64,000 bases of DNA, taken from a virus. This document shows positions 3 to 55,685 of this stretch, in pieces (within the stretch, counting starts at the first letter, position 1; each line of letters begins with the position of its first letter). The DNA lies in IMG/VR virus record IMGVR_UViG_3300035698_006183, positions 24,797 to 88,796 of that record. The stretch is one strand, 5' to 3'. Made by a program: the position numbers and the translations under genes. The notes under the pieces were generated by a model. That model did no database searches. It was not told the origin of the DNA and worked only from the letters and a program-made list of their open reading frames with translations.

Positions 3-1565
3 ATTGGCCAATGGTCTAGGCCACAACGGGTGACTTTCCCTACGGCACACACGGCTACATATTTCCAGGCGGTTCAATCAGCTCTGGTTGTCTTGTTCCT
101 GTGTCGGCCAGATTTGGTAACAAAAGATGAATTGGTACAGCTCCTGACACCTCAGCAGATGACCAAAATAGATGGTGGCCAATTTATTGTTGAAGGGACG
201 GCAGATGAGAAGTGTGGATTAGAATCCCTGAAACAACTTCTTCGAGTGATGTACGACGGTGTGCATGGTCCAAGCCAGCAGTGGAAACGAAATGATTCCC
301 TCCCAGTAGATTTCAGAGTCTCCTTAGATAGACGAGTGCGGAAGTTTACCCAGGATTTATATGCTAAGACTGGGCCGATGTCTGAGATTGAGAAGTTCGT
401 GACCGAGAGTACCGAGAAACTCCGCAGTGTGAAATGGGGAGAGATTTTAGATGCTTCTGGTTTGTTCCCGAACAGTGACTTCACAGATGATTTCAAAGAG
501 GCCACTTTATTAGAAGCCCTCACTAATGATGCAGGTAAAGATACCACGTCTGGGCTGGCTGTTAATCCGTGGAGTATTGGTATCAAAGCTGATGATGCTC
601 TCATGAAAGATGGTTTGATTACAGGCCGTACCCCACAGATGTTTGAAGCCTCTACAGGTGATCCTGACGTAGTATTGAAACGGGAACTTCCAGCATCTGA
701 ACTGGCTGAGTACATAACAACACTCCCAGAGAATTACCGTGCCATATATGAAGCCAGCCCTATTGATGATGATAATGTTGTCAAAGTTTCTGATGAGAAC
801 TATAAGACGATGGAGGCTATGAAGAAAGGCCACAAAGAAGGCTCTGGTGACCGTTCTCCCGTCGTGTTCACAGATGTTGAGGGCATTAACCGAGTTATTG
901 CTGGCACGTCCAGTGGAGATGCTGCCAAGGCTTCTAAGATAGTCTTTGCTCGAAAACTCCTGGTAGAATATGAAGGTGGCCAGCTTATCCAAGAAGCCAA
1001 GATTGCTTTGGGCTTAGCAGGCAACCTTTGGAAACGAAATGATGATGGAGCATGGATTGCAATTCGATTCTTGGATGTAATGCCAGGCATTGATGATTTC
1101 CTTGAAACAATCCGTAACTGGGTTGAAGCTATCAAAGATGCCATCCAGTCCATCGTAGACACAATCGTTAAGTATATCGAATGGTTAGAAGCTCGTATCA
1201 TCGAGATTCAGCAACTGATTCGTCGTATCAATGCTCTCATCCAGTCCCTCCTGGGTCACTTATTCCAGGTGCCTGCATGTTCAGCTTTGATGTGTATCTC
1301 GAACGGAACAGACGGCTTAGTGTCTGACTTGACGGGTTCTCAGTACAAACCGAATGATGGACCCCTGGCTTATGGGGCTGGGGTTGCTTTGGTAGTTCCA
1401 TTCATGCCATCGTTTGTTTACGATTTATTATTGATGATATTCCAAAAACAAGATGGTGAGCCTGACGGTTCCTTGGGTGGGACTGACCCACCAGCAGGAA
1501 TCCCGTTAGAAGGTTTACCAGGGGCACCTGACGAATCTCAGGATGACCCACCTGACGTATTATAG
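3..1565 (+). CDS. Virion structural protein, 5'-partial (frame is open from position 3 and runs off the window)
   Basis: No stop codon upstream of the GTG at 30. C-terminal helical/coiled-coil segment. First gene of the structural operon. Confidence 0.6.
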   Translation: MGQWSRPQRVTFPTAHTATYFQAVQSALVVLFLCRPDLVTKDELVQLLTPQQMTKIDGGQFIVEGTADEKCGLESLKQLLRVMYDGVHGPSQQWKRNDSLPVDFRVSLDRRVRKFTQDLYAKTGPMSEIEKFVTESTEKLRSVKWGEILDASGLFPNSDFTDDFKEATLLEALTNDAGKDTTSGLAVNPWSIGIKADDALMKDGLITGRTPQMFEASTGDPDVVLKRELPASELAEYITTLPENYRAIYEASPIDDDNVVKVSDENYKTMEAMKKGHKEGSGDRSPVVFTDVEGINRVIAGTSSGDAAKASKIVFARKLLVEYEGGQLIQEAKIALGLAGNLWKRNDDGAWIAIRFLDVMPGIDDFLETIRNWVEAIKDAIQSIVDTIVKYIEWLEARIIEIQQLIRRINALIQSLLGHLFQVPACSALMCISNGTDGLVSDLTGSQYKPNDGPLAYGAGVALVVPFMPSFVYDLLLMIFQKQDGEPDGSLGGTDPPAGIPLEGLPGAPDESQDDPPDVL

Positions 1566-2495: not shown

Positions 2496-3674
2496 ATGTC
2501 AAGAGAATTTCAAATAGCATGGCCATGTGACCACCGAACAATCGAAGAAGGAGTTCTTCTTGGTGATGACCGGCGTTCATTGCTTACCAGACAACCTATA
2601 GCGGGGTCTAAGACCGTCCGAGTGATGGTTAATGATGAGCTGTTTGTTCCGCTCGGTGGTTTGTATTCTCCTGCCCAACTTTACGGTTCTACTTCTGGTC
2701 CCTTCGACCTGACTGAAGGGGATGACACTCTGATAGTTGAAACCTCAGCAGGAACTTCAACTGTTTCTTTTGGAGTTACGGGTATTACTCGGCTGACTAC
2801 AGACCAGGTTATCCAGGAACTCCAAAGACAGCAATTCAATAGTGCCGTGGCTGAGAATATTAACGGCCACCTGGTCTTTTCTGACGGTTTAGTCGTCGGC
2901 CCTGACTCCTATGTAAAAGTTAGAGGTAAAGCTGCGGAATCCCTTGGTTTCGGTTCGGCAGAATGCAACAAAGGGGCCTCGAATCAACGTGGTGCCAGAG
3001 GGTTGCAGTTGTATCCGAGCTGGAATCTTTCAACTCGTCCTGACGATTTAGTAAACCGTTTCCCAGTATTTGATTACCCTGTGAGGGGAAATCCTCTGTT
3101 CAAGGTATCCTACACGGTTATCCCAGAGAGATGCCTTCGATGTGGTGGTTCTTACGTGGAAAACGATTATAGATATGGGATTGATGGCCAGTCAATCATG
3201 ATTGAAAACGAGAACTTACTGTACCAGGCGTGTTTGAAGATGCTCCTGACTGATATAGGTAGTAATCCTTATCATACGTGGTATGGAACCAAGATTATGA
3301 GCCGAATTGGAACGAAGGCCGTGTCTGGGGTGTCTATGTTGATTAGTGAAGATGTTCGGAATGCTCTGGCTCGTTACCAGTCCCAGCAGGTAGAGCAGGG
3401 GAAATACCAACCCGTGTCTCTGAAAGAACAGCTTTATTCGATTTTGAATGTCCAGGTTGTCCCTCATAAGCAGGACCAGACGACGTTCCTGATTGATGTG
3501 ACAGTTCGGAGTGCCTCGGGCGACCCTGTAACTTTGAGCATTGTATTTACGGCTCCTTCGGCAGTGGCTTTGATGGGGTCCAATGGACTCATGCTGGGAA
3601 CCGAATCAGTAGGGTTGGGTGATGATAGAGTGTTTCCTAATCAACTGAACCTTAACGGTGTTCCTACGGAGTGA
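2496..3674 (+). CDS. Baseplate wedge protein with C-terminal gp25/GPW-like domain
   Basis: C-terminal LYQACLKMLLTDIGSNPYHTWYGTKI...IDVTVRS matches the gp25 pattern; CxxC motif; immediately precedes baseplate J. Confidence 0.75.
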   Translation: MSREFQIAWPCDHRTIEEGVLLGDDRRSLLTRQPIAGSKTVRVMVNDELFVPLGGLYSPAQLYGSTSGPFDLTEGDDTLIVETSAGTSTVSFGVTGITRLTTDQVIQELQRQQFNSAVAENINGHLVFSDGLVVGPDSYVKVRGKAAESLGFGSAECNKGASNQRGARGLQLYPSWNLSTRPDDLVNRFPVFDYPVRGNPLFKVSYTVIPERCLRCGGSYVENDYRYGIDGQSIMIENENLLYQACLKMLLTDIGSNPYHTWYGTKIMSRIGTKAVSGVSMLISEDVRNALARYQSQQVEQGKYQPVSLKEQLYSILNVQVVPHKQDQTTFLIDVTVRSASGDPVTLSIVFTAPSAVALMGSNGLMLGTESVGLGDDRVFPNQLNLNGVPTE

Positions 3675-3678
3675 TAAT

Positions 3679-6600
3679 ATGACGACAGAAGATACAAGAA
3701 CACCTAAATTTTATGGACCTGACAACGTACTCCGCTCGGAATATATATTTTCGACGGACTTATCGTTTCGTGTATTCAATGGGACTGTTGATGCAGACAC
3801 TGTAGATGTGCAAGTTTCTCTGAGAAACGGAGCCTTCTCGTCTGACCCGGACTTGATTTCATTTGAGGGAACAACTTTCACAGTCCCGAACTCCGCAGCA
3901 TTTCCTGACGGCTTACAGCTTCTTCCGGGGGAAAACATTATTTCTGTTCGGGCAGTTATGTCCAATGGTGATACCTCTCCAATAGGAACCATCCAGGCAA
4001 ATCTTTCCTTGGAACGAGATGTCAAGGCTGGAGTCATTGCTCCCAGTGGTATCTATGTAGAACGTCTGGATAACAAAGTTCAAGTTTACGTGGATGGCCT
4101 TGAAGATGCCAACGTCACAGGTTACCAGTTCTATGCTTCAATAGAAGCTGGAGGTGGTGCCACAGGATACAAACGGATTTCAATAGGCCCTGTGATTTCT
4201 GGGGAAGTCTATGAGAAAATCACCCCTCTTGGGGAATTGGACATGGATGCTAACGTGGTCCGGACCGATGATGGCAGTCTGGCTTCCGAACCTCAATACA
4301 TTCATATGCTCAGCACTCAGGAAGACCGAACTGGAGTAGTTTTCCAGACTGATTTGAACCAACGTATCAGTATATCTGATACCACCACTCAATTCCGAGC
4401 CAACATCGTACTCGATGGAGTGCAGGAGTTGAATAGATTCTCGTTCATTCATAACCGTAAAGCTACGGCCAGCCTAACAGAAGCATACCCAGCAGTCCCA
4501 CACTCAGAATTCTCAGCCATGCTGGACACAGACCCTCTATATTATGTGGTGACCGCACTGTATATAATTGACGGGAAAGAGTACGAATCTTCTTACTCTC
4601 CTGAAGTCGGGGCAACCCCAATCATCGTGTCGCCTCTGGTATCGGCATTACCAACAGTATCCAGGCAGCAGATTGTCAAAGACGTGTCCTTGTCCATTTT
4701 CAGGTCACACCCTGAGCTGGATATTAAACCAGGCTCAATGATTCGTGATACTTTCGTGGACCCGTTCTCCAGTGAAGCTGAACGTATTCGTTTCATCTTG
4801 AACTTCGTCCAAACTTGCCAGGCATTCTCGACACTGTTAGACGTTGATGACCCGAACAACACAGGTCAATCTATCACGGTGAACAACTCACCGTTCAAAT
4901 TAGCTTTGAAGCAGGCTTTCTATCTGCAATCCAATACCGATGTGCAGAATATGATTGACAATGCTTTCGATAAACTGGCCTCTCAGAGAGGAGTCGTCCG
5001 AAACATTGGGCGTCGTTCTCGTGGTGAGGTTGTAGCTTACGTTACAACTAAGCCAGTGACTTCAATCTTCATCCCTCTGGGGACAATTGCCTATGCAGGC
5101 AGTCAGCAATTCAGAACAACTTCCAGTGGTTACATCACTTCGACTGGGATTGGGTCTTCATACGACCCAGTTACTGGCCGATACTTCACCAGATTATACG
5201 TCCAGGCTGTGAATCCTGGGGGTGCTGGCAATGTAGCTGGTGGGCAGATTCGTGCATTCCAGAGTGGCCCACAGGGTGTTCTCTGTTATAACGATGTTCC
5301 AACCTATGGTGGACGTGACCTTGAAACTAACCGTCAGTTGGCCACTCGGGCCGACGGAGCATTATCAGGTGTAGATACGGGAACTTACCGTGGATACGTG
5401 CAGACCACAAATAACATCAGTGGGGTGCAAGAGTCTACCGTGGTAGATGCTGGCCATTCTCTGATGCTTCGAGATATCAACCCTGAAACCAACCAACACA
5501 CAGGTGGTAAAGTGGATGTGTGGGTACGGGGTGAAAACCTGGCTTCCATCCAGGATAGCTTTGCATTCTCTTTCGAGATTGTGGACAGTGGCCAGTTTGA
5601 ACCGGTTGGTGCCATTCAAGACCTCAAGTTCAGAGCTGTTAATGCCAATCTTTCCATAGATAATCCTATTATGGAGATGTTGGATAACGAAGCCTGGGGC
5701 TTCATGTTCACGGATGACACAACGGGCAAAGTATTTGATTTGACCGACGTTGAAGTTCTGACGTTTGATACCATACAATTATCCTCTGCTCTCAATGACC
5801 CGACCAACATTGCCCTGACAGATGTGTTCCGTGGGTCTTACCGTTACCGAACCAGTAACAAGTATGTGTTCCAACGTCAGCCTGTACGGTCAGTGACCAG
5901 TTTGGTCGGGACAACCCAGAATGTGGACGAGGGCTATTTCAAATTGTTTGCAGGCAGCCAGCCTTTAGACCTGGGACGTTCTACTGAGTCCGGGGATTAT
6001 TTGCAGGTTGTGCAGCCTGTTGGGGATTACATTCAGATTCCTTCAGGTGAGCCTATTGAAGTGTCGGATGAACGGCATGTGCTTTTGGAAAGTACTGAAT
6101 ACCTGGATAACTTGGGAATCAATCCCATCACTGTTCGGGTGTACAATGTAGAGAGAACCATCGAATATTACGGCCCATATCATCCTGACGTGGAGCCTGA
6201 CTTCACATTTGTGGATGAAGTAGGGGATTACCCTCTGGGAATTCTGCCCACCTCCCTAAGCCGAATGGTTGAGGGTCAGGAAGTGGCCGTGGATTATAGC
6301 CACGATGAGAACTTTGTCGTGACCTACCAAGTCAACTCTTTGATTGGGACAACCCAAGAAGATTTAGATGATACTCGGAACATCATGGCCGATGTATTGG
6401 CCAAAGATTCCCTCCCGATTGGTGTAGATATCACAGCTACCATCGTGACCAAGAAGAACAACAGCGTTTATGTAGTGGATAGTGATGTTCGGACGGAATT
6501 AGCTCGGTTGTTTGGGACTTTCAACCTGGGAACTCCTGTACGGCAATCTGACGTACTTGGAGCCCTAGAGCTTGTCGAGGCTGTTTCCTATGTCGTTGTA

Positions 6601-38948: not shown

Positions 38949-39413
38949 ATGAAGATGAAGAATTTAGTATGGTTATTGGTATTAGCAGCATTCACGATGA
39001 GTGGATGTGCGGCTCTCGATTATTTCAAGAAAGCCGACAATCAGGAAAACCTGGTAAAATTGGGAATCACTTGCTTTGAAAGTAAAGATTACACGATTGG
39101 TATCGAATACGGTCTTACCAGAGATGGTGAAGAAATCACGAATGCTACTCAGGTCGGTGGGATTATCGGATGTGATAACAAGAAGTTCTCAGTTATATGT
39201 GATGTTACCAAAGGACCAGATGAGAACCCTTGCTCGGATGTGAAGTCTTATACAGAAGACCCACCATCTAACTCAGCCCCTGCTGCAGAACCTGTTATAG
39301 AAGAACCCGTAGTTGAGCCTGCTGTTGAAGAACCCGTAGAAGTTAAGCCAGAACCTGTTACCCTAGCAATTAGCCTGGGTCTGAAGATGAAACCTGCGGA
39401 GATGTGGTGCTAA
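38949..39413 (+). CDS. Lipoprotein with Pro/Glu-rich linker
   Basis: Signal peptide with lipobox MSG-C; EEPVVEPAVEEPVEVKPEPV; AGGAGG RBS. Confidence 0.65.
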   Translation: MKMKNLVWLLVLAAFTMSGCAALDYFKKADNQENLVKLGITCFESKDYTIGIEYGLTRDGEEITNATQVGGIIGCDNKKFSVICDVTKGPDENPCSDVKSYTEDPPSNSAPAAEPVIEEPVVEPAVEEPVEVKPEPVTLAISLGLKMKPAEMWC

Positions 39414-39957: not shown

Positions 39958-40012
39958 GGTATAATGGTTTTAGGCCGTCCTTTCCGGGCGGTAAATTTAC
40001 AAGGAGATGAAA

Positions 40013-40408
40013 ATGAAAAAAGTATTGCTTGTTCTGGTTCTGATGTTTCTTCTGATGTTCACCATGACGGTGAATGCTTCGATGATGGAGAATGGCCTGG
40101 AGCCGTTGGAAGTAGATGGAGACATTGAAGCTGAAGTAACAGAGGTTGCTGAAGTAGCTGCCCCAATGGACACCGAGAAGGCTACGGAGGTTCCGGCTGC
40201 TGCCACACTCTCTCCAGACGAGGAAAAACCAGTCATTCCGGCCATTATAAAGGAAATGCCAAACGTGCCGGATGTCGAGAAAGTTACAGACCTTGCTGAA
40301 GATGAAGCTGATGATGCTGGATGGGGCACTTATGGAGGCATCTTCGTGTTGCTTATTGCTGCCGTCATAGGAATTGTTCGTGTGAGACGTAAGAAAAAAC
40401 TGGTCTAA
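40013..40408 (+). CDS. Exported acidic protein with C-terminal transmembrane anchor and basic tail
   Basis: Sec signal (MKKVLLV..VNA); acidic low-complexity middle; GWGTYGGIFVLLIAAVIGIVRVRRKKK. Confidence 0.7.
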   Translation: MKKVLLVLVLMFLLMFTMTVNASMMENGLEPLEVDGDIEAEVTEVAEVAAPMDTEKATEVPAAATLSPDEEKPVIPAIIKEMPNVPDVEKVTDLAEDEADDAGWGTYGGIFVLLIAAVIGIVRVRRKKKLV

Positions 40409-40440
40409 TCCAGTTATCTGTTGCGAGCCTGAGCAAAATT

Positions 40441-40478
40441 AAAGCCCCGATAGGTTAATCCTGTCGGGGCCTTTTTAT
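40441..40478. terminator. Rho-independent terminator, probably bidirectional
   Basis: Stem GCCCCGATAGG / CCTGTCGGGGC with TTAAT loop, T-tract on the right and A-tract on the left, between convergent genes. Confidence 0.85.
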
Positions 40479-41417
40479 TTAGATTACTATTCCGTAGTAA
40501 TGGGCAAGAAGAAGTTTTCTCACGAGCCTTTTGTAAGCAATGGCCACTTCCCATCTCTTTTCAAGAGGGTTCCATTTTCGTTCCTGTCGGGGAATAGAAG
40601 TTTTCAGTGCATCTTTGAATTTTCTGTTAAAAGGAGTTTTGACATATACCAGAGTAGCATCTGAAGTTAGGGCTTTCGGGTTCAACACAGGCTTCTGGGC
40701 TGGAGTAATAGGTTGAGGCTTTGGTGCAGGCTGGGTTAATGATCTCTGGTAGTCACGGAGGTCAGTCCAGCGTTTTCTGGCAATTGTCCATACTCCAGTA
40801 GTATCATCTGCTTTAGTTCCACAGGCCAGTTTACCACCAAGGTAGATACCCAGAATGATGTCGAGGAGACGTTTCTGGTTCATTGGTACATTCCAGATAA
40901 GTTTCCGTCCCTGTTTGGTTCCAGTATCTTCAGCATTTGGAATTTCATTCATGCTTTTAATGATTTTCCATTGGTTGGGGATGGCTACGAAGTATCTGTC
41001 ATTGTCAGCATCCTTCAGGATAGTGACCTGAGTTCTGTCAACTTCCAGACGATCAGCCATTTCCGTGTATCCGAGTTCACGGATGATACGGGAACATTTG
41101 AAGACTTCATTACGGTCGTGGTATTTACAGGCAGCCCAATACACCAGCAAGTTGGAACCGAGCCGTGCATTGGCTTTTTTGTTGTTCACCAGTTTACGGA
41201 AGCCGTGGATGATGTCCTCTGGGAGTCCTGAAATCAATAGGAGTCCCAGAGATGACATAACCATCTCTTCAGTTGGTTCATGGAGGGGGTTGTAGTAGCG
41301 TTTGGAACATACAGGGCCAATACCATGTTCAACAGATTCAGCATCTGTTAAAGGTTTGCCACATATACAGCATCGGGATGCTGTGAGTTTCGTGATGTCA
41401 GTGTTAGGGTTTGTCAT
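40479..41417 (-). CDS. DUF6011-type Zn-finger protein with C-terminal HARP/DUF5710-like domain
   Basis: CCICGKPLTDAESVEHGIGPVC; VKTPFNRKFKDALK..RKWNPLEKRWEV; AGGAGG RBS. Confidence 0.65.
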   Translation of the reverse strand: MTNPNTDITKLTASRCCICGKPLTDAESVEHGIGPVCSKRYYNPLHEPTEEMVMSSLGLLLISGLPEDIIHGFRKLVNNKKANARLGSNLLVYWAACKYHDRNEVFKCSRIIRELGYTEMADRLEVDRTQVTILKDADNDRYFVAIPNQWKIIKSMNEIPNAEDTGTKQGRKLIWNVPMNQKRLLDIILGIYLGGKLACGTKADDTTGVWTIARKRWTDLRDYQRSLTQPAPKPQPITPAQKPVLNPKALTSDATLVYVKTPFNRKFKDALKTSIPRQERKWNPLEKRWEVAIAYKRLVRKLLLAHYYGIVI

Positions 41418-41438
41418 AATCAAAGTACCTCCTTACAT

Positions 41439-41468
41439 CAACAACTCGAAACTCAGACCAACTAAGCC
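41439..41468 (-). promoter_or_regulatory. Phage bipartite promoter-like motif, copy 1 (GGCTTAG-N13-CGAGTTGTTG)
   Basis: Minus strand GGCTTAG ttggtctgagttt CGAGTTGTTG, just upstream of the RBS of the 41417 gene. Confidence 0.8.
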
Positions 41469-41475
41469 AATTCTT

Positions 41476-41601
41476 TTAAAAGGTGCTAAGAAATGCTGAG
41501 ACTTGGTCACTGCAGCCAGAACATTGGCTGAAACCAGCGGCCACGAGGCCGATAACGACAACTACAACCATGAGTTCCACGAGTGTGTAACCTTTTTTCA
41601 T
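41476..41601 (-). CDS. 41-aa type IV prepilin-like micro-protein (not in the ORF track)
   Basis: Manual translation MKKG|YTLVELMVVVVVIGLVAAGFSQCSGCSDQVSAFLSTF: class III signal with G-1 and E+5; GAAAGGA RBS upstream. Confidence 0.8.
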   Translation of the reverse strand: MKKGYTLVELMVVVVVIGLVAAGFSQCSGCSDQVSAFLSTF

Positions 41602-41641
41602 TGTTCGATCCTTTCAAGTTAGGGTTTAGTATCTAAAGCAA

Positions 41642-41833
41642 TCAACAGTTGGGTACAACTACGTAACAGAAACCATCTTGGAGTTTAGGGTCAAATCTGA
41701 TATAAACCCTGTCAGCCTTGAAAGGGACCATTTCACAATCCCCACCGATCTCTATTAGATTTTTCAGATGATCCTCAAGAAGAAAAGGTTTTTGATCAGT
41801 GTATGTGGATTCTATTGAGTTCTGTTCGGCCAT
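41642..41833 (-). CDS. Hypothetical protein (63 aa)
   Basis: AAGGT RBS; operon position. Confidence 0.55.
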   Translation of the reverse strand: MAEQNSIESTYTDQKPFLLEDHLKNLIEIGGDCEMVPFKADRVYIRFDPKLQDGFCYVVVPNC

Positions 41834-41845
41834 GATAGTTTACCT

Positions 41846-42163
41846 TTAGGATACGAAAGCCGTAGCAATACGGTTCAGGTCTTTAATAATATCTTTGAAC
41901 GCTTCTGGGTGGATGTTAAGAGCTAGTTCAATCTGGTAATCCCGTTGGGGGTTTTTACTGATAATATTTGAGAAACCATTGTTCTCCGTCCATTTTTCCA
42001 GACGAGCATAACTCTGGAAACGGTAGGTGCTGTCATAATGGATGTTAATCTTGAATCTCTGAGTGCCAATACCAAACAAAATCGTTTGGTTGTAGTTACA
42101 TTCATTCTGTAGGTCTGCAAGAAAACCAGTGTCTTCAATAATAGTGATTTCAGCTTTAGCCAT
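41846..42163 (-). CDS. Hypothetical protein (105 aa)
   Basis: GGAG RBS; first gene downstream of motif copy 2. Confidence 0.65.
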   Translation of the reverse strand: MAKAEITIIEDTGFLADLQNECNYNQTILFGIGTQRFKINIHYDSTYRFQSYARLEKWTENNGFSNIISKNPQRDYQIELALNIHPEAFKDIIKDLNRIATAFVS

Positions 42164-42202
42164 TATATGCTCCGTTTCAGTAAATTTTAATATTCTCTAC
42201 CA

Positions 42203-42232
42203 CAACAACTCGAAACTCTGATAAACTAAGCC
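42203..42232 (-). promoter_or_regulatory. Phage bipartite promoter-like motif, copy 2
   Basis: Minus strand GGCTTAG tttatcagagttt CGAGTTGTTG. Confidence 0.8.
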
Positions 42233-42246
42233 GAGAAAATTATTTT

Positions 42247-42276
42247 GGCTTAGTTGCTCCTACTTCCGAGTTGTTG
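42247..42276 (+). promoter_or_regulatory. Phage bipartite promoter-like motif, copy 3 (divergent from copy 2)
   Basis: GGCTTAG ttgctcctacttc CGAGTTGTTG. Confidence 0.8.
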
Positions 42277-42319
42277 TAGTGTAAGACGGAAACGTCATTT
42301 AAACCAGGAGATGAAAAGA

Positions 42320-42935: not shown

Positions 42936-42965
42936 GGCTTAGTTACTCTAAGTAGCGAGTTGTTG
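42936..42965 (+). promoter_or_regulatory. Phage bipartite promoter-like motif, copy 4
   Basis: GGCTTAG ttactctaagtag CGAGTTGTTG. Confidence 0.8.
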
Positions 42966-43004: not shown

Positions 43005-43790
43005 ATGAAACATTTAATAAAAACAGCAATCCTGACAGCCATTTTGATTATTTCCCTTACAGGTTGTGGAACCATCATAAGTGTTGGTGACGGCAATCCC
43101 TTTGAAGACGGTGACGTAGATTCCGAAGGAACTGAACTCGATGGTGATGTAGAAGATTCTGAAAACGAAGCACCTTTACCTGATGGTGACACGGAAATTA
43201 CCGAAGATTCCGAAGATACCGAAGATACCGAAGATACCGAAGGTGAAGACACTGAGGATACCGAAGGTGAAGACACTGAGGATTCCGAAGATGTTGAGCT
43301 TGTTTGTGATGAGCCCGATGATTTTAGTGATTTAATTTGGCTTTTTGCTGAAGATATGGATAATAATCTAATAACGGAATTACATATAAATATAACTTGG
43401 AATCAAGCTAACAACTACTGTGAAGGTCTGGAACTTGATGGTTTTGATGACTGGAGACTACCTACAATCCACGAACTTCGTTCATTGATAATTGAAGATT
43501 CCTGTCCCGAAGCTGAAGAATGTGGCCTCATAGACCGTTGCTTACAAGGACTTGAAGAAGACAGTTCTTGTAATAAGATATGTGATTGGGACCAGAATAT
43601 AAATCCTGAAGGTTATGGTGACCTTGATTATGTTATAAGTAGTGTGAGTTATTGGTCATCTACAGAATCTACAGTTGAAGATGAACATTGGATTTTGAAT
43701 TTTGCACATGCTTCATTGAATAGTGGTAATGAAAACCATATACTTGCTGGAACATGTGTCCGTTCAGATGAGGACGAGGACATTCTATAA
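43005..43790 (+). CDS. Lipoprotein with acidic repeat stalk and DUF1566 (Lcl C-terminal, C-type-lectin-fold) domain
   Basis: Lipobox LTG-C; TWNQANNYC..DDWRLPTIHELRSL..YWSST..WILNF..CVR. Confidence 0.8.
   Translation: MKHLIKTAILTAILIISLTGCGTIISVGDGNPFEDGDVDSEGTELDGDVEDSENEAPLPDGDTEITEDSEDTEDTEDTEGEDTEDTEGEDTEDSEDVELVCDEPDDFSDLIWLFAEDMDNNLITELHINITWNQANNYCEGLELDGFDDWRLPTIHELRSLIIEDSCPEAEECGLIDRCLQGLEEDSSCNKICDWDQNINPEGYGDLDYVISSVSYWSSTESTVEDEHWILNFAHASLNSGNENHILAGTCVRSDEDEDIL
43200..43292 (+). repeat. In-frame tandem repeats: 9-bp (A/T)CCGAAGAT units plus two 24-bp ACCGAAGGTGAAGACACTGAGGAT units
   Basis: Read directly from the sequence; encodes TED/SED and TEGEDTED repeats. Confidence 0.9.
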
Positions 43791-54852: not shown

Positions 54853-55662
54853 ATGCCAAACAAAGCCATTGGAATCGTTGGGGTTGATTACTGTGGTTCC
54901 ACTCTGCTGAATTATATTTGGGATGGTATCCCTGGTGTATTTGGTGCCGGTGAAACTCATTGGGTTTTAGATAAACCTGAAATCAATTGCCGACAATGCA
55001 ATCGTCCTCGATGCTTGGTATGGAAACCAGAGATTCGAGAGTATTTACCTCAAGCAGCAGACAATGGGAAATGGTGGGATGCACTTCGAGAAATGGCCAA
55101 GGCTGAAATCGTTGTGTCTTCTGACAAGAAAGCTGTCCATTACGAACAGTTTGGAGTTCCTTCCCGACTTGTTTTCAGTTTCAAGGAGCCACTGGCTCAT
55201 ATTTTCAGCCGAGCTGCTGTCAAGTTGGGGAAAAGTGATGCTGCTGTTAACATTGAAATTAACAATGACACATTGGATGAGGCTATCACTTGGTGGGTAG
55301 ATGAAACCAATACCACTCTTGATTGGCTTATGGAACAGGATTCAGAGTTCAAGGTTGTCAAGATGGAGTTGTTAGTGGATAAACCTGCTGCTCACCTGAA
55401 AGCCTTCTGTAAATGGGCTGGTGTGAAATATGATGCTACGGCACTAACATTCTGGCGGAAACGTCACCATTATATCGGTGGTAATCATGCCCTAACTCGT
55501 CTGAAACGCTCATACTATTTCTTCAGGAAGCTCAAGAAAGACGAACGCTGGAAAGATTGTTTCACACAGGAACAAGTGGATAGAATCCAGAGTGCTGATG
55601 ATGTGAAAGCTGTCACAAAACGTCTGGAAGCTCTCTTAACCCCTGAAAAGTTACTGGCTTAG
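54853..55662 (+). CDS. PAPS-dependent sulfotransferase-family protein
   Basis: 5'-PSB loop GVDYCGSTLL, GE, SSDK, MELLVDKP..L..FCKWAGV; CxxC-x4-C. Confidence 0.75.
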   Translation: MPNKAIGIVGVDYCGSTLLNYIWDGIPGVFGAGETHWVLDKPEINCRQCNRPRCLVWKPEIREYLPQAADNGKWWDALREMAKAEIVVSSDKKAVHYEQFGVPSRLVFSFKEPLAHIFSRAAVKLGKSDAAVNIEINNDTLDEAITWWVDETNTTLDWLMEQDSEFKVVKMELLVDKPAAHLKAFCKWAGVKYDATALTFWRKRHHYIGGNHALTRLKRSYYFFRKLKKDERWKDCFTQEQVDRIQSADDVKAVTKRLEALLTPEKLLA

Positions 55663-55685
55663 AAGGTCAGAGTTTCGAGTTGTTG
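55656..55685 (+). promoter_or_regulatory. Phage bipartite promoter-like motif, copy 5
   Basis: GGCTTAG aaggtcagagttt CGAGTTGTTG; its TAG is also the sulfotransferase stop codon. Confidence 0.8.

Follow-up and report, generated by a model that had tools for sequence, protein, structure and literature searches.

The p105-p63-p41 locus of a giant salt-lake phage

The window, meaning the whole 64,000-nucleotide stretch of DNA analyzed here, carries on its minus strand a compact unit of three genes, p105, p63 and p41, followed by the gene of a DUF6011 protein (Table 1). It belongs to a virus record of 88,796 bases, which CheckV rates at about 17% completeness and which carries giant tail genes, and the seven DNA runs containing the stretch are labelled salt-lake metagenomes, with no RNA run listed among them; contigs of runs X1-X4 leave 41488-41679, and with it most of p41, uncovered. 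The source is a giant uncultured lytic-type phage from a salt lake. The last gene of the unit, p41, has exactly the 41-residue translation given in an earlier note on this DNA, which had described it as an unannotated phage micro-pilin. "Unannotated" is not strictly right, as the ESM Atlas contains the p41 sequence letter for letter, so some pipeline has already called it.

Table 1. Features at and around p41 (coordinates within the window)
Feature	Coordinates	Strand	Remarks
Envelope-cluster protein	38949..39413	+	lipobox protein (...MSGC)
Envelope-cluster protein	40007..40408	+	
DUF6011 protein gene	40479..41417	-	312 aa from ATG 41417; PF19474, 44.6 bits
Bipartite motif copy 1, GGCTTAG-N13-CGAGTTGTTG	41439..41468	-	7 nt past p41 stop, ahead of the ribosome site of the DUF6011 gene
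p63 + p41 insert, about 0.38 kb	41469..41845	-	between p105 stop and motif copy 1; absent in 4/4 p105-keeping relatives
p41, 41-aa micro-prepilin ORF	41476..41601	-	ATG start, TAA stop; PF07963, TIGR02532
Shine-Dalgarno-like GAAAGGA	41609..41615	-	7 nt before p41 ATG
p63, 63-aa ORF	41642..41833	-	no known family; its occurrence goes with that of p41
p105, first gene of the p105-p63-p41 unit	41846..42163	-	conserved in relatives
Bipartite motif copy 2	42203..42232	-	presumed promoter of the p105-p63-p41 unit
Bipartite motif, further copy	42247..42276	+	
Bipartite motif, further copy	42936..42965	+	
Envelope-cluster protein	43005..43790	+	lipobox protein (...LTGC)
Bipartite motif, further copy	55656..55685	+	

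The unit lies between two copies of a 30-nt bipartite motif, GGCTTAG-N13-CGAGTTGTTG, which occurs five times in the window against zero occurrences expected by chance, and every copy is followed by a ribosome site; the motif probably serves phages of this clade as a promoter of non-structural genes. The place of p41 as the third gene after motif copy 2 is as the earlier note had it. Consensus scans for promoters and terminators gave matches at chance level in this region. A weak hairpin resembling a terminator (41873-41860) separates p105 from p63 and counts against a single unit, although matches of this sort are no commoner here than chance would give. The window contains no tRNA genes. Variants of the GGCTTAG half are seen ahead of orthologous genes in related loci (L015, position 2093; L016, 1307; L051, about 479 and about 889), and contigs of other salt-lake runs carry GGCTTAG-N13-CGAGTTGTTG with unlike flanks.

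p41 fills the gap between p63 and motif copy 1 exactly, and the GAAAGGA ribosome-binding site noted before is present at a suitable distance from its ATG. In this record an SD-like 4-mer at -17 to -5 precedes 25 of the 37 long ORFs and 29 of the 295 small ones, making such sites about 7 times commoner ahead of long ORFs; because they are rare before small ORFs, the ribosome site of p41 lends mild support to a real gene. Its codon score is 0.014 per codon versus 0.273 +/- 0.061 for long ORFs, which places it at the 74th percentile of 416 small ORFs. These observations bear in opposite directions on a first alternative, namely that p41 is an inert remnant, in which the first 25 or so codons of a pilin gene were captured or cut by recombination and a further 15 codons are read-through into unrelated DNA, leaving an ORF that is neutral or untranslated. 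The unremarkable codon score would suit such a remnant, but a well-spaced SD site would be a rare accident before a small ORF here, and the start codon stands exactly where a prepilin leader needs one. Together with the comparative evidence below, we regard this explanation as somewhat unlikely.

Among the neighbors, p63 has no family match and no ESM Atlas feature match, and its Atlas model is poor (pLDDT 0.44). No lysis genes were identified adjoining p41. p105 matches the TATA-binding-like domain of TOTE conflict systems below threshold (19.2 bits, cut-off 27; E 9.5e-4). A cluster of three envelope proteins surrounds the unit; one of its two lipobox proteins combines an Lcl_C domain with long acidic ED/T repeats, and the third protein has a signal peptide and a C-terminal anchor.

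A prepilin signal without a globular head

Read from its translation, p41 opens with a leader of four residues that includes two lysines and ends in Gly4, followed by Tyr5 (+1), Glu9 (+5) and a hydrophobic run to Phe24 that forms a helix of about 20 residues. The features of a prepilin signal are thus found together, namely a short basic leader, Gly at -1, an aromatic residue at +1, Glu at +5 and a hydrophobic stretch of about 20 residues. Counted after Gly4, the predicted mature peptide has 37 residues with Tyr1, Glu5 and Gly14; position 22 is Gln, not Pro, and Cys23 and Cys26 belong to the CSGC sequence of a 17-residue tail, so that the product of about 37 residues, the CSGC tail and the lack of Pro22 described in the earlier note can be read directly from p41. 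Pro22 matters for some pilin functions, and its lack counts against a pilin-like role of p41.

Profile searches lead to the same assignment. PF07963 (N_methyl) matches residues 2-23 of p41 with 32.8 bits (cut-off 21.2, E 4.4e-8) and TIGR02532 matches with 31.2 bits (cut-off 16.3), so p41 belongs to both families by their curated cut-offs; the class III signal that the earlier note had recognized, and for which it had suggested these two models as a check, is real. When all 88,796 bases of the record were scanned in six frames, p41 was the sole PF07963 match (E 4.5e-9), and a lone match at this level indicates that the signal is more than chance. The prepilin signal at the start of p41 is thus genuine, and the protein is complete at 41 residues.

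Models of full-length pilins and pseudopilins align only to p41 residues 2-29 and score far under their cut-offs: 26.8 bits for GspH (cut-off 80), 23.6 for GspG (88.85), 19.1 for PilA (400) and 17.8 for ComGC (75). Type IV pilins and type II secretion pseudopilins share with p41 the Gly-ended leader, the aromatic +1 residue, Glu+5, Gly14 and the hydrophobic alpha1-N helix, but they continue into alpha1-C and a globular beta-sheet head, both of which p41 lacks, ending as it does at 41 residues. The absence of a head remarked on earlier is therefore borne out. That p41 might be the stub of a longer, frameshifted pilin gene, a case which the earlier note had named against itself, was rejected. 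The 58 nt past the p41 stop are taken up by motif copy 1 (41439-41468) and by AGGAGG, the ribosome site of the DUF6011 gene that comes next with its ATG at 41417; since these begin directly after the stop, there is no room for a frameshifted continuation, and none is found downstream. A Flp/Tad pilin was rejected as well. No Flp family appears among the Pfam matches of p41 up to E 1, and, compared with the generally known form of the Flp motif, the p41 motif is of the type IVa/pseudopilin kind.

The same N-terminus could in principle be a lipoprotein signal, with signal peptidase II cutting before Cys30 (between CSG and C) and leaving a 12-residue lipopeptide. Two neighboring phage proteins do have classical lipoboxes (...MSGC and ...LTGC), and p41 has SGC. 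A lipobox requires a residue of the Leu/Val/Ile type at -3, small residues at -2 and -1 and Cys at +1, but relative to Cys30 of p41, position -3 is Cys and position -4 is Gln, and relative to Cys27, position -1 is Gln. Moreover, its hydrophobic region contains a Glu, and the prepilin HMMs account for the same residues at high score. We know of no precedent for a 12-residue mature lipoprotein. For want of a proper lipobox (Cys -3, Gln -4) this candidate was rejected, and we hold it to be highly improbable.

A further alternative grants the helix and dissociates it from pili. p41 would then be a small membrane peptide in which the prepilin helix is an anchor or a PilD-dependent insertion signal, and either the CSGC tail is the active part, as a redox or metal site or an envelope inhibitor, or the peptide perturbs the membrane for lysis timing. 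The CxxC-type pair in the tail agrees with this, but the complete prepilin motif (Gly-1, aromatic +1, Glu+5, Gly14) exceeds what an anchor needs, and no lysis genes were identified beside p41. A charged Glu in a helix that only anchors has its cost, unless it is put to the use that pilins make of it; this also counts against the alternative, which we judge unlikely.

A lineage-specific insert and the recurrence of short prepilins

No full-length homologue of p41 was found among proteins of 22-72 aa by word-indexed search or among 1.84 billion representatives by exhaustive phmmer, which returned only 3 matches at E 1e-3 or better, all of 120-269 aa and all confined to the p41 N-terminus. The homology of p41 to other proteins ends at about residue 23-29. 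In each of the three best matches (P0001, P0002 and P0003) a complete prepilin N-terminus occurs twice; either the gene caller may have joined short pilin genes lying in tandem, or these may be real tandem fusions. At the DNA level, tblastn with p41 against 50,697 phage records (low-complexity filter on) and blastn of 40400-42300 against phages gave no match, INPHARED holds no close relative of the phage, and scanning IMG/VR with one protein at a time (DUF6011 protein, helicase, p105, p63) gave no relatives.

Relatives were found by alignment-based scans with 24 sequences, that is, the DUF6011 protein of the window and 23 of its 42 homologues, the closest of which (P0004, 73% identity) lies on a 3.8-kb contig. 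These scans gave 44 related loci, 38 from metagenomes and 6 from IMG/VR records of 6.5 to 536 kb, five of them of 109-536 kb. Homologues of p222, p69, p133 and p105 stand in the same order in related loci. p105 is kept in four of them (L015, L051, L029 and L017), and in all four the DUF6011 gene follows directly; in L015, p105 stops at 2478 and the DUF6011 gene starts at 2483, and in L051, which has the closest p222 (83% identity), a motif copy lies 7 nt past the p105 stop. By contrast with these flanking genes, p63 and p41 are missing. A regular-expression scan found a prepilin-like motif in 0 of the 44 loci, tblastn with p41 and p63 gave no match in the related loci, and p63 has no relatives in 5 giant-phage records and no tblastn match in 51 other loci. 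Because both genes are absent from 4/4 relatives that retain the flanking genes, the pair is a lineage-specific insert in a hypervariable slot; on this comparison of gene order, p63 and p41 constitute a two-gene insert immediately before a motif copy that was already in place. Between the p222 homologue and the DUF6011 gene, the slot varies in length from 125 to 2586 nt, and what it contains is unrelated from locus to locus (12 of 44 loci). The conservation in related phages that the earlier note had proposed to look for was not found, there being no whole-peptide homologue and no such gene at this position in relatives, and with p41 absent from the 44 loci and from 4/4 slots, purifying selection on the ORF cannot be shown.

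The slot itself shows signs of gene traffic elsewhere. In L003, the Zn-ribbon part from the N-terminus of the DUF6011 protein is found a second time in a 42-aa ORF (2925-3053 and 3072-3284 region), some 2 kb upstream of the complete gene at 5001-5918, and ORFs which by eye resemble a C5 DNA methyltransferase and a LAGLIDADG-type endonuclease lie between the two copies. A similar endonuclease-like ORF of 273 aa precedes the DUF6011 gene in L016. These features of the two loci suggest homing-element traffic in the slot.

Much of this comparison would suit an inert remnant. p41 is an orphan, with no full-length homologue and no counterpart in relatives, its homology breaks off at about residue 23-29, and the slot is variable (125 to 2586 nt, 12 of 44 loci). 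In addition, the p41 stop falls 7 nt before a motif copy that occupies the same place in the insert-free L051, so this point could be a recombination joint. Against a remnant stand short prepilin ORFs that occur independently in related and in other phage-like DNA from metagenomes, one of them with a conserved tail and ATGA coupling, and a truncated phage PilA that recurs in six phages (PMC12952977).

The first of those independent ORFs came to light in a PF07963 search of 5 IMG/VR records, taken at full length, from which related loci derive. There was one match (30.7 bits), a 46-aa ORF in G003, a record of 435.8 kb with terminal repeats that is rated complete. ATGA overlaps join this ORF to a 148-aa gene upstream and a 26-aa hydrophobic ORF downstream. 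It resembles p41 in the N-terminal motif only (11/19 identical), the tails being unrelated, and it is not syntenic with p41, lying at 169 kb of a genome whose DUF6011 gene is at about 320 kb. A profile built from p41 and the G003 ORF retrieved 4 short proteins, including the G003 product itself. One of 45 aa (P0048) is identical to the G003 product at 30 of 45 positions, among them the last nine residues, and the remaining two (P0049 and P0050), 44 and 36 aa long, likewise contain nothing beyond the prepilin part and a tail, which differs. Within the G003 family, conservation is higher in the tail than in the helix. As judged from these sequences, short prepilins have arisen repeatedly and are under selection elsewhere.

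In the ESM Atlas, 29 of the 30 clusters nearest to p41 carry N_methyl; the representatives of the top three are 39-45 aa long, with 70-135 members per cluster, and their scores of 0.90-0.91 serve as leads only. Bacterial genomes provided a control. Among the best 80 of 114 matches to the same N-terminal words, 72 complete ORFs were 105-412 aa long (median 151) and 0 were at or below 60 aa, the other 8 running off the locus. Three further IMG/VR matches are ordinary pilins, two of 150 and 144 aa and a third with no stop within its 70 residues.

The other giant-phage micro-prepilins (the G003 ORF with P0048, P0049 and P0050, and the Atlas clusters of 39-48 aa) are 36-46 aa long. Like p41, they have 2-3 leader residues before the Gly, Tyr or Trp at +1, Glu at +5 and a short tail; unlike p41, they have unrelated tails and another genome position, so that only the N-terminal motif is common. 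Parts of this set speak for the small membrane peptide set out above. The better conservation of the G003-family tail over its helix argues that the tails do something specific, and the 26-aa hydrophobic ORF coupled to the G003 gene suggests sets of small membrane peptides. In 4/5 micro-prepilins a Gly-(x)-Cys ... Asp stretch follows the helix, about 26-32 residues from the start, but this Cys/Asp pattern rests on 5 short gapped sequences. The 26-aa ORF, at 1352-1432(-) of L008, is purely hydrophobic and shares its ATGA overlap with the stop of the 46-aa ORF; the two may be a pair of small membrane peptides.

A possible role for p41 in host type IV filament systems

Of the explanations weighed here, we tentatively favor the one in which p41 is a real accessory (moron-like) gene whose product would be cleaved by host PilD and, as a head-less pilin, would disturb a type IV filament system of the host. 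p41 would insert in the inner membrane with its N-terminus in and its C-terminus out, and a host peptidase of the PilD/GspO type would remove the leader after Gly4 and methylate Tyr1. The 37-residue product would stay in the membrane as an alpha1-N assembly helix with its CSGC tail of 17 residues in the periplasm, and could then act on the type IV filament system of the host, either a pilus or a type II secretion pseudopilus. Most likely it would enter or block the assembly platform as a head-less subunit; by a second route, it may mimic a full inner-membrane pool of pilins and so deceive a kinase that senses pilins (PilS- or PleC-like). The phage would presumably gain from an early loss or change of the host's pili, through superinfection exclusion of pilus-dependent phages or a halt of motility. 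The pilin-mimic reading put forward in the earlier note is supported as to its signal, its head-less form and the exclusion of a frameshift, but not as to conservation, as p41 has no whole-peptide homologue and is absent in relatives; the piliated host which that note took to be implied is a prediction of the reading.

The phage records searched leave the maturation of p41 to the host. Peptidase_A24, the prepilin peptidase family, was found in 0/5 records (that of p41 itself and four related ones), and the T2SSE ATPase above its cut-off in 0/5 phage records, with three short sub-threshold matches only; any processing of p41 must accordingly be the host's. Relatives of the p41 N-terminus span Pseudomonadota, Bacillota, Planctomycetota, Nitrospirota and Patescibacteria (best 80 of 114), and since its N-terminal words occur in so many phyla, no host can be named from them.

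Among the closest described counterparts is the truncated PilA (P-PilA) reported in Cell Rep 2026, which comprises the N-terminal 60 residues and occurs in six non-temperate virulent Pseudomonas phages; incorporation without phage-binding sites, or inhibition of assembly, was put forward there as a proposal only (PMC12952977). P-PilA and p41 are alike in being phage-encoded, in consisting of the pilin N-terminal helix alone without a head and in belonging to non-temperate phages (PMC12952977). By description, p41 is shorter (41 aa, 37 after cleavage) and has a different, CSGC-containing tail, and it comes from an uncultured giant salt-lake phage rather than from Pseudomonas phages. The roles considered here for p41 have already been proposed in print for a truncated phage PilA (PMC12952977), and the idea is less new for that. 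The same source describes prophage P-FimU, which enters the pilus and blocks tip-binding phages (PMC12952977). P-FimU likewise is a type IV pilus subunit in a phage-borne version, relies on host machinery and alters susceptibility to pilus-dependent phages; as described there, however, the P-FimU of F10-like Pseudomonas phages is a functional minor pilin of full length, which takes the place of FimU at the tip and supports twitching. Without a head domain, p41 cannot be a functional replacement of this kind.

A precedent for the activity of the helix comes from Caulobacter PilA. According to that study, a 17-residue pilin transmembrane peptide (CIP) alone signals through the PleC kinase and cuts phiCbK susceptibility by 77%, and an intramembrane PilA-PilS interaction is cited there (PMC7196804). 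The pilin transmembrane segment alone suffices to signal, to impair pili and to lower susceptibility to a pilus phage, from which it follows that a head-less pilin helix can be biologically active (PMC7196804). CIP differs from p41 in being, as described, a laboratory truncation of a host Flp-type pilin and not a phage gene (PMC7196804).

A broader proposal, which on the sequences at hand we consider a long shot, is that giant phages maintain diverse, fast-evolving micro-prepilins of 36-46 residues, moving in small cassettes beside phage promoters, as mimics of the host's inner-membrane pilin pool, with p41 as an orphan allele. Once freed by PilD cleavage, their bare alpha1-N helix would bind the transmembrane segments of PilS-/PleC-like kinases or the assembly platform, and pilus production, surface sensing or cell-cycle signaling would be switched off within minutes of infection. 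Such peptides would not be building blocks of pili, and the variable periplasmic tail (CSGC in p41) would tune the target.

Returning to p41 as a putative accessory gene, its product, if made and processed, would be near the smallest possible pilin, 37 residues forming a helix without a head, and would offer a natural probe of what the alpha1-N helix by itself can do to type IV pili or to the type II secretion machinery, as well as a candidate superinfection-exclusion or host-takeover factor of giant phages. Its value alone is limited, because it is an orphan, its gene product is putative and the idea is in print; the main interest of p41 is as part of a recurrent class of phage micro-prepilins, and several unrelated short forms in huge phages and metagenomes suggest a common strategy. 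The p41 N-terminus also matches three short PHROG families of unknown function, phrog_13280, 11263 and 10597, with profile lengths of 67, 72 and 59, which may or may not be the P-PilA family.
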